From Acutalibacteraceae bacterium (GTDB lineage Bacteria; Bacillota; Clostridia; Oscillospirales; Acutalibacteraceae), in contig JBJEQF010000016.1 in the NCBI GenBank assembly GCA_051881615.1, positions 89,547-113,546 on the forward strand: DNA of 24,000 bases, in the 5' to 3' direction. The notes under the pieces are model-generated. The model had not been told where the DNA came from and did not search any database. It worked only from the letters and a program-made list of their open reading frames with translations. Position 1 is the stretch's first letter. Every line of letters begins with the position of its first letter. A program made the translations under genes and the position numbers. Of this stretch, positions 4,099 to 21,488 are shown piece after piece.

Positions 4099-6390
4099 TT
4101 ATTTTTCTGCCAGATACATCTGAATTGCCGTTGCGTCTTTTATGTTGACCTCGCCGTCAGAATTTACATCGGCTGATTTACACTGCTCTTCTGTAAGTGT
4201 AACAAGTGATGCAACAGACTTTTGTATTACCGTAACATCATTTATATTGATTTTACCGTCACCGTTGACGTCGCCCAAAGCATCAGTTGCAGGCTTTTCT
4301 GCCGTATCGATAAATATAAATCCGTTGCTGTTTGCATATTTTTCAGCCGCTGTGCCTGAGGTTCCCCTGATTGTAAAGCCGTCAATCCTCCTTCGTGAAG
4401 GGAATTTTGTATACCCAAATGCAAGATCACCGATAGCAGTAACACTGTCGGGGATTGTTACTCTTTTAAGGCTTTCACACTCGTCAAAGGCATAACTGCC
4501 GATTTGTTCAACTCCCTCGGGAATTGTAACGTCCGACAGCCTTTGGCAATCAGAGAACGCATATCTGTCGATTACCGTAACGGCAGAGGGGATTTTTATA
4601 CTTTCAAGACTTTTGCAGCCTGAAAACGCAAATCCGCCAATGTCTGTAACACCGTCGCCCATTTCCACATTCTTTAGACTTTCACAGACACAAAATGCTC
4701 CATAGCTGATTTTTGTTACGCCGTTGGGGAGCTTTATGCTTTCAAGACTTTTGCAGTCGCAAAACGCACTTTCGCCAATATCTGTAACGCTGTCGGGGAT
4801 TTTAATGCGTGAAAGACTTCGACACCTAAAAAATGCATAGTCGCCAATCTTTTTAACGCCGTCAGGGATAACTGCGTCTGTAAGTTTTATACATCCGTAA
4901 AATACGCCATCGGCGATATTTGTAATCTGCTTTGGCATTGTAACAGCCTCAAGGCTTATACAGTTTTCAAACGCAAGGCTGCCGATGCTTATAACGCTGT
5001 CAGGGATTGTTATGCTTTTAAGGCTTTCACACTCTTCAAAGGCATATCTGCCTACTACCGTAACGGCAGAAGGGATTATTATTCTTTCAAGGCTTTTGCA
5101 GCCTGAAAACGCATATTCGCCAATTACTGTAACACCGTCGCCCATTTCCACATTCTTTAGATCTTCACAGTCACCAAATGTTCCGTCGCTGATTTTTGTT
5201 ACGCCGTTGGGGAGCTTTATGCTTTCTAAACTTTTGCAACTGCAAAACGCACTTTCGCCAATATCTGTAACACTGTCGGGGATTTTAATGCGTGAAAGAC
5301 TGCTACACCAAAAAAATGCATAGTCGCCAATCTTTTTAACGCCGTCAGGGATAACTGCGTCTGTAAGTTTTATACATCCGGAAAATGCACCATATGCGAT
5401 ATTTGTAATATACTTTGGCATTGTAACAGCCTTAAGGTTTATACAGTTTTCAAATGCAAGGTAGCCGATGCTTGTAACGCTGTCGGGTATGTTTATGCTT
5501 TCGAGGTTTTCGCAGTTTGAAAATGCAAACCTACCAATGCTTACGGCGCTGTCGGGAATTACAACGCTAACAAGCGTTTTGCAATCTGCAAAGGCTAACT
5601 CAACAATGCTCTTGGTACCGTCCTTAATTGTTATCTCTGAATTCTCAGGCATTTCCCCCTTGTATTTGTAAGCAAACCCTCCGGCATAAACTACACCGTC
5701 AGGCTGATTGTTATACCACTTCGTATTGTAAAAAGCGGCACCGTCGATACGTGTAACGCTGTCGGGTATGTTTATGCTTTCGAGATTTTCGCAGTCTGAA
5801 AACGCAGCCGTACCAATGCTTACAACGCTGTCGGGGATTTCTACGCTTACAAGATTTTTGCAGTCATCAAAAGCACAGTCGCCAATCTCTGTAATGCCGT
5901 TAGGGATAGAATATGATGCGTATGCCTTAGGAAGCATTACGATTGTATCCTTTTGCTTGTTAAAAAGCACGCCGCCCTCTGAAGTATAATTATCGTTATT
6001 GATTACATTTATGCTTTTAAGATTTGAACATCCTTTAAAAGCATATTCATCTACACTTGTAACGCTGTCGGGGATTGTTACGCTCGTAAGTTCTGTGTGA
6101 CCGAAAAAAGCAAAACTACTGATCATTTTAACCGTTTTGCCGTCAAGCTCTGACGGAATTGTAAGCTCAGCCGCATTTCCTGTGTAGCCTATGATTTCTA
6201 TAGTACCGTCCTTAAGTATTTGATAAAGAAAGTCGCCGCTCGAAAAAGGTTCTCCTCTGGAACCCGTCTGTGCACTGCCAAAATTTGATACCTCATTTGC
6301 CGAGGCTGTCAGCGGCACCGATACCGCCGTGCTTAACAGCATAAGTGCAGAAAGTAAAACTGAAGCTAAGCGTTTTGATTTTATCATCAT
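4099..6390 (-). CDS. Secreted BspA-like leucine-rich-repeat protein with C-terminal type I dockerin (cellulosome/amylosome-associated)
   Basis: AAGGAGAGG is followed 5 nt later by the ATG at 6390. The signal peptide is MMIKSKRLASVLLSALMLLSTAVSVPLTASA. There are more than 20 LRR units of ~23 aa (IPDSVTSIG--AF--C-SL). The C-terminus has duplicated Ca-binding dockerin segments, DVNGDGKININD and DVNSDGEVNIKD. Confidence 0.88.
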   Translation of the reverse strand: MMIKSKRLASVLLSALMLLSTAVSVPLTASANEVSNFGSAQTGSRGEPFSSGDFLYQILKDGTIEIIGYTGNAAELTIPSELDGKTVKMISSFAFFGHTELTSVTIPDSVTSVDEYAFKGCSNLKSINVINNDNYTSEGGVLFNKQKDTIVMLPKAYASYSIPNGITEIGDCAFDDCKNLVSVEIPDSVVSIGTAAFSDCENLESINIPDSVTRIDGAAFYNTKWYNNQPDGVVYAGGFAYKYKGEMPENSEITIKDGTKSIVELAFADCKTLVSVVIPDSAVSIGRFAFSNCENLESINIPDSVTSIGYLAFENCINLKAVTMPKYITNIAYGAFSGCIKLTDAVIPDGVKKIGDYAFFWCSSLSRIKIPDSVTDIGESAFCSCKSLESIKLPNGVTKISDGTFGDCEDLKNVEMGDGVTVIGEYAFSGCKSLERIIIPSAVTVVGRYAFEECESLKSITIPDSVISIGSLAFENCISLEAVTMPKQITNIADGVFYGCIKLTDAVIPDGVKKIGDYAFFRCRSLSRIKIPDSVTDIGESAFCDCKSLESIKLPNGVTKISYGAFCVCESLKNVEMGDGVTDIGGFAFSGCKSLESIKIPSAVTVIDRYAFSDCQRLSDVTIPEGVEQIGSYAFDECESLKRVTIPDSVTAIGDLAFGYTKFPSRRRIDGFTIRGTSGTAAEKYANSNGFIFIDTAEKPATDALGDVNGDGKININDVTVIQKSVASLVTLTEEQCKSADVNSDGEVNIKDATAIQMYLAEK
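4525..5490 (-). repeat. Intragenic tandem duplication, 2 x 483 bp (161 aa, 7 LRR units each)
   Basis: 4525-5007 aligns with 5008-5490 at a constant 483-nt offset. For example, 4741 ttcaagacttttgcagtcgcaaaacgcactttcgccaatatctgtaacgc matches 5224 ttctaaacttttgcaactgcaaaacgcactttcgccaatatctgtaacac. Identity is roughly 90% by eye. Confidence 0.85.
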
Positions 6391-6480
6391 ATCAACCTCT
6401 CCTTGCATTTAATGAGTATTTTTACGCTTTCACCATATATACAACTCAGCCTGTCAAAATTTTACACCTGCTGAAAATTT

Positions 6481-10788: not shown

Positions 10789-11052
10789 ATGGAAAATTTT
10801 ACACAATACCTCTTTGTGCTTTTGTGGGCGTTTATGGCTGTTTACCTGTTTGTGCAGGGGTTAAAGGTAAATAAAATCTGCTTTGTTTACAGCGTGTTCT
10901 TTTTGTTTATGACTGGCTGGTACCTTGCAGATATAATCTACACCGACATAGATATGATGCACGGCAGCTTAGGCTGGGTGTTCAGAGGAATTGTCGGAGC
11001 TGTTCTGCTATTTACAATAATAGTTGCCGTAGTCAAGCGGAGGAAAAAATAA
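10789..11052 (+). CDS. Small membrane protein (87 aa, ~3 TM, basic C-tail)
   Basis: GAGGAG lies upstream, and the start is 3 nt after the previous stop. Three hydrophobic segments, then VKRRKK. Confidence 0.5.
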   Translation: MENFTQYLFVLLWAFMAVYLFVQGLKVNKICFVYSVFFLFMTGWYLADIIYTDIDMMHGSLGWVFRGIVGAVLLFTIIVAVVKRRKK

Positions 11053-11068
11053 AAAATCTTAATAAAAA

Positions 11069-11094
11069 GCTCCCGACATTTATTCTGTCGGGAG
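11069..11094. terminator. Bidirectional rho-independent terminator
   Basis: GCTCCCGACA (11069-11078) pairs with TGTCGGGAG (11086-11094). An A-run lies upstream and a T-run downstream. It serves the convergent 10789..11052 (+) and 11113..11565 (-) genes. Confidence 0.65.
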
Positions 11095-11112
11095 TAAATT
11101 TTTGTTCTGAGC

Positions 11113-11565
11113 TTATACATCATAATGCGTCTTGGTGTAACCCTCTTTTTGAAAATCAAAAGCTTCAACATATGGCTCTGAGCTTTCGTATATCCATCTC
11201 TGAATGTATTTTGGAACAACCCTGAAAAGTCTTTCGTTATTCAGCAAAGAATACTTTTGGTATGACCAGTTGTAGTGCTGCTCATATAGCCTTATGAACC
11301 TTTCGTTATCACTCGGCTTGCCTATTTCTGAACATACTCCCTCAATCGATGTATTATCAAAGCACAGTGCAACATTTGGATTGCCGATGATTTGATTATA
11401 CTTTCTGAAAGAAATATCTGTCTGAAAATAAAAGGCTCTGTCTAAAATGATAACGCTCATCATTCTTGACGTGACTGTTTTATCAAGGCAAGTGGACAGC
11501 ACCATATTTCTGCTTTCGCCCAATTCTGAAAACAGATTTTCAACCTTTTCACCAAAGTCATTCAT
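11113..11565 (-). CDS. Pyridoxamine 5'-phosphate oxidase-like (split-barrel FMN-binding fold) family protein
   Basis: 150 aa. The pattern ...NMVLSTCLDKTVTSRMMSVIILDRAFYFQTDISFRKYNQIIGNPNVALCFDNTSIEGVCSEIG resembles PNPOx-like / general-stress-protein-26 proteins (from memory). Its ATG overlaps the toxN TGA as ATGA (11562-11565). Confidence 0.55.
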   Translation of the reverse strand: MNDFGEKVENLFSELGESRNMVLSTCLDKTVTSRMMSVIILDRAFYFQTDISFRKYNQIIGNPNVALCFDNTSIEGVCSEIGKPSDNERFIRLYEQHYNWSYQKYSLLNNERLFRVVPKYIQRWIYESSEPYVEAFDFQKEGYTKTHYDV

Positions 11566-12080
11566 AGCCTTACCTCTGATAAATTTCTATATTCATTGCA
11601 CTTTTTCTCCAACAATGAAAAATCACAGCTATTCCTCAAAAGTGAAGGACTCTTGCCCATCATAACCCTTTTATACGTTCTTTGTGCTAATCGTCTTATG
11701 TATTCCTGATTTTTAATACAGAACTTAAGCTCCTGTGCTAAAAGTGTTTTATAAGCTTTGTCTGGCTCCGTATCAATTCTTCTTTCTTTCACAATTCCTA
11801 AAGGTATCGGAAACATATAATTAAATCGTAAGGAAGCTACCGCATTATTGTTTTTGTCACAAATTATGAAATTGTCTGCTTTCTTCTCTTTATAAGATGA
11901 CACCGGAACAAAATAATTCAAGTTGTTTATTTCAAGAACTATTCCGCACAAAAATTTTTGCTTTCTGTTTTTTCCGTAATCCATATTCGGTACACGAGAG
12001 AAACCTCGATGCTCAATTTCAGCATTTTGCAAATATTTTACATATTTTTGATCAACAATATAAAAATTCAGATTATCCAT
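11562..12080 (-). CDS. toxN: Type III toxin-antitoxin system toxin, ToxN/AbiQ-family endoribonuclease
   Basis: 172 aa, AGAGGAGAAG Shine-Dalgarno. Three blocks match my recollection of ToxN/AbiQ (Pfam ToxN_toxin): the N-terminus NFYIVDQKYVKYLQN; FLCGIVLEINNLNYFVPVSSYKEKK; and the C-terminus NSCDFSLLEKKCNEY. The length fits ToxN/AbiQ (170-185 aa). The gene is preceded by a tandem-repeat array and a terminator. Confidence 0.8.
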   Translation of the reverse strand: MDNLNFYIVDQKYVKYLQNAEIEHRGFSRVPNMDYGKNRKQKFLCGIVLEINNLNYFVPVSSYKEKKADNFIICDKNNNAVASLRFNYMFPIPLGIVKERRIDTEPDKAYKTLLAQELKFCIKNQEYIRRLAQRTYKRVMMGKSPSLLRNSCDFSLLEKKCNEYRNLSEVRL

Positions 12081-12090
12081 ACTTCTCCTC

Positions 12091-12123
12091 TAAAGTAAAA
12101 GGGAACGATTACTCGCTCCCTTT
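12091..12123 (-). terminator. Intrinsic terminator/attenuator between the antitoxin repeats and toxN
   Basis: On the minus strand: AAAGGGAGCG-AGTAAT-CGTTCCCTTTTACTTT, a 7-bp stem with one G-U pair followed by a T-run, immediately before the toxN ribosome-binding site. Confidence 0.65.
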
Positions 12124-12127
12124 GCTT

Positions 12128-12237
12128 AACATTATCGCCTGCACTCAGAGCGGCAGGGCACTCAGCATAAATCACTTGCGCTCAAAGTGGCAAGGCACTT
12201 AGCATAAATCACTTGCGCTCAAAGTGGCAAGGCACTT
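12128..12237 (-). ncRNA. toxI: ToxI/antiQ-like RNA antitoxin: three tandem 36-37-nt repeats
   Basis: On the minus strand, R1 (12237-12201) and R2 (12200-12164) are identical: AAGTGCCTTGCCACTTTGAGCGCAAGTGATTTATGCT. R3 (12163-12128), GAGTGCCCTGCCGCTCTGAGTGCAGGCGATAATGTT, is ~75% identical. The units are contiguous with no spacers. Each contains AAGTG/CACTT/AAGTG segments capable of alternative or pseudoknot pairing. Confidence 0.75.
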
Positions 12238-12269
12238 AACAACAGTAGATTACATCTACCTTTACTATT

Positions 12270-12298
12270 ATTATACTCAAGCAAGGCTTTTATGTCAA
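12270..12298 (-). promoter_or_regulatory. Consensus sigma-A promoter driving the toxI-toxN transcript
   Basis: On the minus strand: TTGACA (12298-12293), 17-nt spacer, TATAAT (12275-12270). Both hexamers are perfect. Confidence 0.7.
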
Positions 12299-12373
12299 GA
12301 AAAATATGACGGCATAATTTAGACAATGTAGACGATGTAAACGTGCGGTATTTTTTATACATTTTTCGTCTTT

Positions 12374-12526
12374 CTACTCGCTCACATTCTTATCCTTCAA
12401 ATGCTCCTTTAAAACGAGATTTATATATTGCGAAAAAGAACGGTCGCATTCCTCTGCAAGTATTTTTACGCTGTTTATTATATCCTCGTCAAGTGTAATA
12501 CTTACCTTTTGCTTTAACGGCTTCAT
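12374..12526 (-). CDS. Ribbon-helix-helix (CopG/Arc/MetJ-type) DNA-binding protein, 50 aa
   Basis: The start is reassigned to the ATG at 12526, preceded by GAGGTG. MKPLKQKVSITLDEDIINSVKILAEECDRSFSQYINLVLKEHL has the beta-strand / helix / helix layout typical of RHH antitoxins and repressors. Confidence 0.6.
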   Translation of the reverse strand: MKPLKQKVSITLDEDIINSVKILAEECDRSFSQYINLVLKEHLKDKNVSE

Positions 12527-12607
12527 TTTTAACACCTCGGTAATAATATACTCTAAAATGCTTTGTCTGCTTGAAAATATAGGCATAAACGCCTCTGACA
12601 GCCATAA

Positions 12608-13189
12608 TCAGCCGATGCCGAGCTCCCTGAGTCTGCGGTGAAGCAACGCAACAGGCAGTCCCATTACGTTGTAATAGTCGCCCCTTATACCCTTTACAAG
12701 CAGTGCTCCCTTGCCCTGTATGCCGTATGCGCCCGCCTTGTCAAACGGCTCGTTTGTTTTTATATATTCAAGGATTTCGCCCTCTGTCAGCGGATAAAAC
12801 TCAACCGATGTTTTGTCGCTGAAGCTGACGGTTTTTTCGCCCTTGCAGATACAACAGCCCGTTACGACAATATGCTCTCTGCCCTGCAATAATCTCAGCA
12901 TTTCAAAGGCGTCCTCTACGTTTTTCGGCTTGCCGAGCATTGTATCATCTGCAATAACGACTGTGTCGCTGCCTATTACTATACTTTCCCTGTGCGCTTT
13001 TGCTACCGCCTTGCATTTTATTTCTGCAAGGTATTCGGCTCTTTTTAATATGTCAATACCGTCAGGCACGATTTCTTCAACATCTGCCGGAATACACTCA
13101 AAATTGTCTGTAATAAGCCGCAGCAGCTCCTGCCGTCTTGGTGAGGCTGAAGCAAGGATTATTGTATCTGACGCACTAAGGCTGTTCAT
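12608..13189 (-). CDS. maf: Maf-like nucleoside triphosphate pyrophosphatase (septum formation protein Maf)
   Basis: IILASASPRRQELLRL..., VIGSDTVV...LGKP..., and DKAGAYGIQG...GDYYNVMGLP are hallmark Maf motifs. GAGAGGAG Shine-Dalgarno. Confidence 0.9.
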   Translation of the reverse strand: MNSLSASDTIILASASPRRQELLRLITDNFECIPADVEEIVPDGIDILKRAEYLAEIKCKAVAKAHRESIVIGSDTVVIADDTMLGKPKNVEDAFEMLRLLQGREHIVVTGCCICKGEKTVSFSDKTSVEFYPLTEGEILEYIKTNEPFDKAGAYGIQGKGALLVKGIRGDYYNVMGLPVALLHRRLRELGIG

Positions 13190-13460: not shown

Positions 13461-14468
13461 TCAGTCTTGCCTTTTATACAAATCGGCAATCTCTGCTATG
13501 TACCTTTCAAAGGACTCTCTTTCTCTTTTCGGCTCGATTATCTCTACCTTTGAGCCTAAGCCGCACAGCCAGCCGTAAAACTGCTTGCTCGGCACTACCT
13601 CAAGTGTTACGAAAAAGCTGTCGTTGTCTGCTTTTGATACAAATATATCAGCACCAAAGCGGTCTGCAAGCACACCGATAAGCGAATTTGCAACCTTTAG
13701 CTTAATGTCGACAACTTCGCCGCCGAACATTCCGAAAACCGATTTTGAATAAAGTGCTGTGTCAAAGCTATACTGTGCTTCGCTTCTCTTTTGCTGTGAG
13801 ATTTCGATTTTTTCCATTTTGTCAACACGGTAATGCTTTACCTCGCCGCTTTTCTGCTCATTTGCTACAAGGTAGTAATTTTCATCGTCCCACACAAGAG
13901 CAAGCGGAGATACCTCGTAGCTTTCGCCGTTTTTGCGGTATTTTTTAGTCACCTTTTTTGCACCGCCGAAGTCAACCGTCCACTCGCTGTATAAAAACGT
14001 AATCTGACTGTCGCAGTTAATTGCGTTGTGAATTTTATCTACGTTATAATATATTTTCTCATTATCTGTCTTTACTCTGTTAGTTACATAAACCTGTCTT
14101 TGAAGAAGCGCTCCGTCGTGAACGCTTGCAAGGCTTTCCACCTTTTTAATAAGCTCCATACTCTTTTTGCGAGTGATGAACTTTGAGCTTTGCACAGCGT
14201 CAACAAGGAGCTTTAGCTCGGGCATTTCAAAGTCACGGTTGCCTATGTAGTAGGTCACCGTCTTTGACTTTTTTGTGCAGATGTCAAGTCCGAAGCCTTC
14301 GAGCGTGTGGATATCGTCATAAATGCTTTTTCTCTCTGCCGATATGCCGTACTGCGACAGTATGTCGATAATCTCGCCGACAGTTATTCCGTGAGTATCG
14401 TCTGTTCTTTCAAGCAGAATTTTCTGAACGTACAAAAGCTTTTGCTTTTGTCTTGATTCCTTTGCCAT
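13461..14468 (-). CDS. WYL-domain transcriptional regulator (N-terminal wHTH, central WYL, C-terminal WCX-like domain)
   Basis: 335 aa. The N-terminus KLLYVQKILLERTDDTHGITVGEIIDILSQYGISAERKSIYDDIHTLEGFG looks like an HTH. The central ...YYLVANEQKSGEVKHYRVDKMEKIEI carries the WYL signature. GGAGGG Shine-Dalgarno. It sits 17 nt after the AEC gene stop. Confidence 0.8.
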   Translation of the reverse strand: MAKESRQKQKLLYVQKILLERTDDTHGITVGEIIDILSQYGISAERKSIYDDIHTLEGFGLDICTKKSKTVTYYIGNRDFEMPELKLLVDAVQSSKFITRKKSMELIKKVESLASVHDGALLQRQVYVTNRVKTDNEKIYYNVDKIHNAINCDSQITFLYSEWTVDFGGAKKVTKKYRKNGESYEVSPLALVWDDENYYLVANEQKSGEVKHYRVDKMEKIEISQQKRSEAQYSFDTALYSKSVFGMFGGEVVDIKLKVANSLIGVLADRFGADIFVSKADNDSFFVTLEVVPSKQFYGWLCGLGSKVEIIEPKRERESFERYIAEIADLYKRQD

Positions 14469-15663: not shown

Positions 15664-15692
15664 TTGACATAAAAGCATAACGGTTATATAAT
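15664..15692 (+). promoter_or_regulatory. Consensus sigma-A promoter for the 15771 gene
   Basis: TTGACA (15664-15669), 17-nt spacer, TATAAT (15687-15692). Confidence 0.6.
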
Positions 15693-16124: not shown

Positions 16125-16251
16125 GCATATACGGTTAAATATCATAATGCTTTTGGTGATAACAGAAAGCTGTGTGCTTCATAAATAAAGTAAATCTCTA
16201 TATGGAGCTGCGCGCGTCAGCGTAAGCTGACAAAGAAAAGAAATGTATTCT

Positions 16252-16335
16252 TCTTTTTCTTTGTCTTTATCTTTATCTTTTTCTTTGTCTTTGTCTTTTT
16301 CTTTGTCTTTTTCTTTGTCTTTTTCTTTTTCTTGG
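16252..16335. repeat. Hexanucleotide tandem repeat (TCTTTN)x14
   Basis: Fourteen in-phase hexamers: TCTTTT TCTTTG TCTTTA TCTTTA TCTTTT TCTTTG TCTTTG TCTTTT TCTTTG TCTTTT TCTTTG TCTTTT TCTTTT TCTTGG. Only the 6th base varies. Confidence 0.9.
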
Positions 16336-21459: not shown

Positions 21460-21488
21460 ATTATATATACATATTTTTTATTTGTCAA
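21460..21488 (-). promoter_or_regulatory. Consensus sigma-A promoter of the tetR-RND operon
   Basis: On the minus strand: TTGACA (21488-21483), 17-nt spacer, TATAAT (21465-21460). Confidence 0.65.

Follow-up and report, generated by a model that had tools for sequence, protein, structure and literature searches.

A complete chromosomal type III toxin-antitoxin operon of the toxIN (ToxN/AbiQ) family in an uncultured Ruminococcus-like gut bacterium

A 24,000-nucleotide (nt) stretch of contig JBJEQF010000016.1 (Acutalibacteraceae bacterium, assembly GCA_051881615.1, positions 89,547 to 113,546), referred to here as the window, carries on its minus strand a complete chromosomal type III toxin-antitoxin operon of the toxIN (ToxN/AbiQ) family. 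Both family membership and architecture can be assigned with high confidence, and the copy, as judged from its sequence, is apparently complete and functional. An earlier note on this DNA had recognised a complete ToxIN/AbiQ-like module, and Pfam, PADLOC, PDB and fold comparisons agree with that identification, as do the published locus criteria. Type III loci are defined by a toxin homologue, a palindromic terminator, a tandem array and a promoter (PMC3401426; Manikandan et al. 2022, PMC8860590), and promoter, tandem repeats, terminator hairpin and toxin open reading frame (ORF) are all present at the locus. The host is an uncultured gut Ruminococcus-like member of Oscillospiraceae, and LepA of the window is 89-91% identical to LepA of metagenome-assembled genomes (MAGs) labelled ‘Ruminococcus sp.’. 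The family and the layout are known, and what is new is one more uncharacterised member. The earlier note had gone further and proposed a new variant from the 37-nt period, the three copies and the repeat sequence. This proposal was abandoned. The 67 toxIN loci catalogued by Blower et al. 2012 have repeats of 31-62 nt (mean 38.1) in 1.9-5.6 copies (mean 2.8), their toxins are on average 168 amino acids (aa) long, and 57 of the 67 are chromosomal (PMC3401426). The 37-nt period, approximately three copies, 172-aa toxin and chromosomal site are thus central values of published toxIN, and the repeat core can be aligned with that of ToxI from the Pectobacterium atrosepticum plasmid pECA1039.

The toxin gene, toxN (11562..12080, minus strand, with its ATG at 12080), encodes a 172-aa ToxN/AbiQ-family endoribonuclease toxin. 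Two profiles that the earlier note had named as checks both match its product: Pfam ToxN_toxin (PF13958) aligns with ORF residues 4-164 over profile positions 1-159 of 159 (E=3.6e-36; 125.2 bits, cut-off 25), and the PADLOC AbiQ model matches at E=5.2e-32. In a sequence search of the PDB (phmmer), the top match is ToxN of Bacillus thuringiensis (ToxN_Bt, 4ATO; E=1.7e-12), with ToxN of P. atrosepticum (ToxN_Pa, 2XD0) at 8e-11 and Lactococcus lactis AbiQ (4GLK) at E=1.6e-7; along with ToxN_Ec (7D8O) these are the sole meaningful sequence relatives in that database. An AlphaFold2 model made from 24 homologues has a mean predicted local distance difference test (pLDDT) value of 90.2, and Foldseek places it with 4ATO, 7D8O, 4GLK and 2XD0 at template modelling (TM) scores of 0.74-0.80 (best 4ATO, 0.80), with E<=7.5e-10 for all four. 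The catalytic residues K33, T52, S53 and K55 of ToxN (PMC8860590) align with K42, S61, S62 and K64 of the 172-aa toxin. Within the clade alignment A1 (24 homologues), no substitution is seen at K42 or S62, and K64 is conserved to at least 90%. Comparison of toxN with a 95%-identical sister-strain allele from another sample gives a ratio of non-synonymous to synonymous change (dN/dS) of 0.13, and the gene is therefore considered to be under purifying selection. The fold search also turns up CptN (4RMO), which speaks for assigning the module to the cptIN or tenpIN family, or to some other toxin type with an unrelated repeat upstream. This assignment is hardly credible, as CptN reaches only E=0.02 and a TM score of 0.50 against the values given above for the four ToxN/AbiQ structures, and the best matches in Pfam and PADLOC are ToxN and AbiQ. 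Furthermore, the 37-nt repeat lies outside the ranges of cptIN (40-48 nt) and tenpIN (39-57 nt) but inside that of toxIN (PMC3401426).

The remaining elements of the operon lie upstream of toxN on the same strand. The earlier note had located a promoter, two 37-nt repeats and a 36-nt third, a terminator, a Shine-Dalgarno sequence and the 172-aa ORF there, and each was recovered at the position it had been given. The sigma-70-type promoter (12270..12298, minus strand) consists of a -35 element TTGACA (12298-12293), a 17-nt spacer and a -10 element TATAAT (12275-12270), agreeing with the consensus at 12 of 12 positions. This exact pattern occurs three times in the window versus 0.00 expected (100 shuffles). 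The other two perfect promoters are found at 15664-15692 (plus strand) and 21460-21488 (minus strand), and the one at 15664-15692 begins with TTGACATAAAAGC, as does the toxIN promoter. A leader stem-loop read from the sequence, GTAGAT-GTA-ATCTAC (12245..12259, minus strand), lies 5' of the array and may stabilise the 5' end of the RNA. It is followed by TGTTGTT (12244-12238), which stands directly before unit 1 where a repeat tail would be. Downstream of the array is an intrinsic terminator or attenuator (12091..12123, minus strand) with an 11-bp stem (AAAGGGAGCGA/TCGTTCCCTTT), a GTAA loop and the T-rich tail TACTTTA; its local fold energy is -17.8 kcal/mol. A simple terminator scan did not pick up this hairpin at 12123-12091, likely because maximal extension of the stem consumes the first T residues. 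The Shine-Dalgarno sequence GAGGAG (12085..12090, minus strand) is 4 nt upstream of the ATG. As the earlier note had remarked, toxN is richer in AT than the flanking housekeeping genes, with a GC content of 32% versus 48% for Maf and LepA and 42% for the window; this is a weak signal, however, because several small neighbouring genes also have 34-38% GC.

The array consists of three ToxI-like units. Unit 1 (12201..12237, minus strand) is the 37-nt sequence AAGTGCCTTGCCACTTTGAGCGCAAGTGATTTATGCT, with pseudoknot stems at positions 1-4:13-16 and 7/8-11:22-25/26, and unit 2 (12164..12200, minus strand; 37 nt) is identical to it. Unit 3 (12128..12163, minus strand) is the diverged 36-nt terminal sequence GAGTGCCCTGCCGCTCTGAGTGCAGGCGATAATGTT, in which both stems are kept and the tail is TAATG. 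Tandem Repeats Finder reports a period of 37, 2.7 copies and 91% matches, and the number of identical 37-mers expected by chance is 0. In the sister strain (locus L071), G18A relative to the window is seen in both internal units, which indicates concerted evolution of the internal units.

The earlier note had suggested looking for covarying repeats in related genomes, and covariation was found in both internal and terminal units. The pairs of an H-type pseudoknot (stem 1, 1-5:12-16; stem 2, 7-11:22-26) were counted in alignment A2, comprising 71 distinct internal or recognised units, and in alignment A4, comprising 31 distinct terminal units. In A2, 90.7% of cells are paired compared with 33-47% after a shift of the partners by 1-3 columns, and there are 65 double-sided compensatory cells versus 20.6+-3.3 after shuffling, a value reached in 0 of 500 shuffles. 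The usual stem exchanges in A2 are UA to CG at 4:13, CG to UA at 8:25, UA to CG at 9:24 and GC to AU at 10:23. In A4, 90% of cells are paired, with 49 double-sided changes versus 13.7+-3.7 after shuffling, and the structure derived from the internal units is therefore also valid, independently, on the terminal units. These counts support a predicted H-type pseudoknot for the repeat unit, with stems 1-4:13-16 and 8-11:22-25. Pair 5:12 was rejected, being unpaired in 14 of 71 internal and 20 of 31 terminal units with a near-invariant G5 and a free N12, and is treated as a junction. Pair 7:26 is formed only in some units, mainly terminal ones. The earlier note had also expected a pseudoknot, and this part of its proposal stands. 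The mutually exclusive helices that it had read from AAGTG, CACTT and AAGTG do not: the helix CACTT(12-16):AAGTG(24-28) is paired at 64.8% in the 71 units versus 63.8% after shuffling, with 78 of 500 shuffles as high, and the second AAGTG of the repeat is peculiar to this lineage. The approximately 100 natural variants of a ToxI-type RNA collected here confirm both pseudoknot stems by covariation and could seed an RNA family model broader than the ToxI model of Rfam, which covers only the B. thuringiensis (Bt) type.

The third unit differs from units 1 and 2 at approximately 10 of 36 positions, and the PNPOx-like gene next to toxN is visibly decaying in a sister strain. Both observations could be expected if the locus were a decaying remnant in which unit 3 has eroded and the toxin or the array is non-functional. 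Such decay is very improbable in view of the full-length ORF, the intact catalytic residues and the dN/dS of 0.13. The internal repeats are identical and co-evolving, and the differences in unit 3 are compensatory in both stems (A1:T16 to G:C and T8:A25 to C:G). Furthermore, the whole clade follows the rule of a distinct terminal unit ending in TAATG, which is not a mark of erosion. The last unit of the array has this tail in 37 of 37 terminal units versus 0 of 70 internal units, all 70 of which end in (T/C/G)TATG, and terminal units are one nt shorter than internal units in this comparison. Unit 3 of the window, ending in GATAATG, obeys the terminal rule.

In 24 loci, the identity of the terminal core is only 54% to the internal units of the same array but 80% to terminal units from other species, and the terminal units keep the same pairing scheme. 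This pattern points to a terminal unit that is anciently diverged and structurally conserved, so far as can be read from sequence comparison, and the units of the array appear to form a conserved heterotypic set instead of repeating one equivalent element. No mention of a distinct terminal unit was found in the type III toxin-antitoxin papers searched, and the TAATG unit appears to be undescribed so far. It is conceivable, though we consider it unlikely, that the clade array is a fixed set of two homogenised ‘A’ pseudoknots and one specialised terminal ‘B’ pseudoknot with a distinct role. If this were true, the B unit might supply the last cleavage or closure site, so that each transcript gives a single closed 3:3 complex; alternatively, its affinity might be lower or higher and set the trigger threshold.

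More than 300 homologues of the toxin are present in public data, mostly 60-70% identical, and some are already named ‘type III toxin-antitoxin system ToxN/AbiQ family toxin’ or ‘AbiQ’ in their sources. A scan of species-representative genomes gave 66 loci, mostly from Clostridia MAGs and isolates, including Eubacterium sp. OM08-24 and Ruminococcus intestinalis at 67-68% identity. Approximately 37 loci whose toxin is at least about 50% identical have 37-nt tandem repeats within 400 nt upstream (36 nt in L004), with the consensus AAGTGCCCTGCCACTTTAAGAGCAGATCATTTATGAA, and more distant toxins (38-48% identity) have repeats of 33-36 nt. The order within the clade is constant, namely a TTGACA/TATAAT-type promoter, a leader hairpin, the array, a GC hairpin with a T-run, a Shine-Dalgarno sequence and the ATG. 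Nearly all related loci, and the sister strain L071, have a promoter of this type in the corresponding position, and a GC-rich hairpin with a T-run stands between array and Shine-Dalgarno sequence in essentially all related loci. The leader hairpin, located between the -10 element and unit 1 (L001-L043), varies in sequence and is conserved in position and in hairpin potential, often with a loop of the GNRA type (GAAA, GCAA or GTAA). In related loci, the leader ends in (T)AATGNN or TGNN, similar to a repeat tail, directly before unit 1.

Viral relatives are few and comprise two IMG/VR contigs and Clostridioides phage ES-S-0107-01 (CP067347.1, at approximately 95.5 kb of a 133-kb unannotated genome), whose ToxN is 50% identical to that of the window. 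The phage array (L077 287-398) is composed of 36-nt units in 3.1 copies arranged A-B-A, with a diverged middle unit and TAATG in all tails. An Rfam Fusobacteriales-1 RNA match lies just upstream of it (L077 118-231). All plasmid-borne relatives are below 37% identity. The contigs of L067, L069 and L070, which are independent short-read assemblies of this locus, stop 113 nt upstream of toxN, within the repeats; assemblies break at the array because the 37-nt repeats are identical. Type III antitoxin arrays are therefore probably truncated or lost in metagenome assemblies and under-counted in MAG surveys.

A working scheme for the operon can be put together from these elements and from the characterised systems. 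ToxI is known to be an H-type pseudoknot with two single-stranded tails, which occupy the grooves of the active sites of two ToxN monomers in a triangular 3:3 complex (PMC5086642). At the locus described here, the strong promoter would act constitutively and give a transcript with a short leader hairpin and three tandem ToxI-like units. By analogy, most transcripts would end at the intrinsic terminator and keep antitoxin RNA in excess, and read-through would provide the toxN mRNA. ToxN, as a metal-independent endoribonuclease, would then cut the array in the single-stranded tails between units. Each unit of approximately 37 nt is predicted to fold with a 4-bp stem 1 (1-4:13-16) and a 4-5-bp stem 2 (7/8-11:22-25/26), leaving the near-invariant G5 unpaired and a tail of 11 nt. 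The processed units would bind ToxN head to tail with the active site occluded, and a closed 3:3 assembly like that of ToxIN is the most likely form. A collapse in the transcription of this labile RNA, such as upon phage infection, would leave free ToxN to degrade RNA and lead to arrest or death, as abortive infection or as addiction. As for the position of the cut, our best guess is A33^U34 in UUUA^UG, with the same spacing as in ToxI_Pa, where the cut is 4 nt before A1; it is guessed because A-U-G is common to the internal tails, the terminal tails and many leader junctions.

Several observations count against the toxIN interpretation or parts of it. Self-processing, complex stoichiometry, attenuation, toxicity and phage defence are features that we infer from characterised homologues. 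No NCBIfam model matches the toxin, and the Rfam ToxI model RF02519 (gathering score 50) gives no match at E<=10 in 11000-13000. The junction AUGCU|AAGUG is without an A-run, whereas the known ToxN and AbiQ cuts are AA/AU, A/AAAA and A/AAA. Moreover, the surroundings are housekeeping genes with no recognisable defence island or mobile element. The Rfam result says little, because RF02519 is a 34-nt model limited to Bt-type repeats that finds neither ToxI_Pa nor the phage array; for the same reason, absence from Rfam is not evidence of novelty.

The role of the operon can be read in two ways. For the uncultured Ruminococcus-like host it points to a likely gene for phage defence or addiction. 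The toxIN family is already known to be common in gut Clostridia, and many catalogued toxIN loci are in gut Clostridiales (PMC3401426). That the pair serves only chromosomal addiction or stress response, through the same RNA-protein mechanism and with no phage defence, is a real possibility, but one that we find doubtful. Its location among housekeeping genes and the presence of only two relatives on viral contigs are in keeping with it. Nor did every type III system examined give protection from the phages used, as the cptIN systems of Eubacterium rectale and Ruminococcus torques gave an efficiency of plating of about 1 for six coliphages in E. coli (PMC3401426 Table 3). Characterised members of the toxIN family, ToxIN_Pa and AbiQ, are nevertheless described as abortive infection systems. 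A mobile defence gene would also fit the patchy spread over Clostridia, the single matches at 60-70% identity in Bacteroidales-, Bacteroides- and Spirochaetaceae-labelled MAGs and in a Pyramidobacter genome, and the presence/absence polymorphism of the neighbour genes.

The genes flanking the operon encode LepA, Maf, EF-G, acetolactate synthase, an RND pump and a protein with dockerin and leucine-rich repeats (LRR). Directly downstream, a 150-aa PNPOx-like ORF (11113-11565, minus strand) has an ATGA overlap with the toxN stop. It was rejected as a third member of the operon, being absent in 66 of 66 related loci and carrying a 273-bp internal deletion in a sister strain (L070 629-808). Between Maf and the toxIN promoter lies a 70-aa ORF similar to RHH/CopG antitoxins (12374-12586, minus strand; PF12441, 1.3e-6), with no toxin gene adjacent. 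It was likewise rejected as a regulator or partner, since it is missing in L071 and its only homologue among the related loci lies 2 kb away in a distant one. In L071, homology resumes exactly at the -35 element, and approximately 75 nt of unrelated sequence replace approximately 300 nt. An empty-site comparison by way of a 91%-identical LepA did not yield insertion boundaries, as synteny was not conserved. A 335-aa protein with a WYL-WCX domain (13461-14468, minus strand; PADLOC WYL model, 1.1e-27), encoded beyond Maf and 1.2 kb upstream from the toxIN promoter, is a possible defence-associated regulator. Elsewhere in the window, a 483-bp tandem duplication (4559-5501; 2.0 copies, 90% matches), in which periods of 138 and 69 bp are nested, is located within the ORF 4099-6408 (minus strand), which encodes a 769-aa BspA-type LRR_5 protein with a C-terminal type I dockerin. 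A TTCTTT microsatellite of 13.8 copies (16251-16333) is found in an intergenic or ORF-poor region upstream of the RND transporter gene.

The operon can be compared with four groups of known systems. The first group comprises the toxIN loci of gut Clostridiales, such as those of R. torques ATCC 27756, Roseburia intestinalis and E. rectale DSM 17629, which are likewise chromosomal, come from the same bacterial order and agree in criteria and ranges; this comparison is one of parameters. To our knowledge, none of the gut Clostridiales toxIN loci that Blower et al. 2012 catalogued has been biochemically characterised. AbiQ/antiQ of L. lactis (4GLK) shares the family and the fold (TM 0.75), antiQ has 2.8 repeats of 35 nt, and Ser51 of AbiQ replaces Thr at the nucleophile position, as do S61/S62 in the window toxin. 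In contrast to the window locus, AbiQ is plasmid-borne, its sequence similarity is lower, and the antiQ repeat is unrelated at the primary level. ToxIN of B. thuringiensis pAW63 (4ATO; RF02519) is the best match in sequence and structure, comes from a Firmicute host and likewise has about three repeats (34 nt x 2.9). Its 34-nt unit has a different sequence, RF02519 finds the Bt-type array and not that of the window, and the ToxN_Bt motif A/AAAA is not found in the window junctions.

The most detailed comparison is with ToxIN of P. atrosepticum pECA1039 and with ToxIN_Ec (2XD0/2XDB/7D8O), in which promoter, tandem repeats, terminator and toxN follow in the same order. Protein identity to these two toxins is only about 22-24%, while the fold (TM 0.74) and the catalytic K/T(S)/S/K are common to the window toxin. 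ToxIN_Pa is carried on an enterobacterial plasmid, whereas the window locus is on the chromosome of a Gram-positive anaerobe. The ToxI_Pa repeat used here was confirmed by a 100% match in pECA1039 (NC_011767.1). Compared with ToxI_Pa, the window unit is 37 nt instead of 36, with loop 3 shorter by 1 nt and the tail longer by 2 nt, and there are 3 units instead of 5.5. The tail in the window is without the GAA/AU cleavage motif, and the clade of the window has a distinct terminal unit. When aligned by eye, the ToxI_Pa core, AGGTG..TGCTACCTTTAAGTGCAG, can nevertheless be set against the clade consensus, AAGTG..TGCCACTTTAAGAGCAG, segment by segment (AGGTG-ATTTGC-TACCT-TTAAGT-GCAG and AAGTG-CCCTGC-CACTT-TAAGA-GCAG, respectively). 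Both ToxI_Pa and, as predicted, the window repeat are H-type pseudoknots with single-stranded tails.

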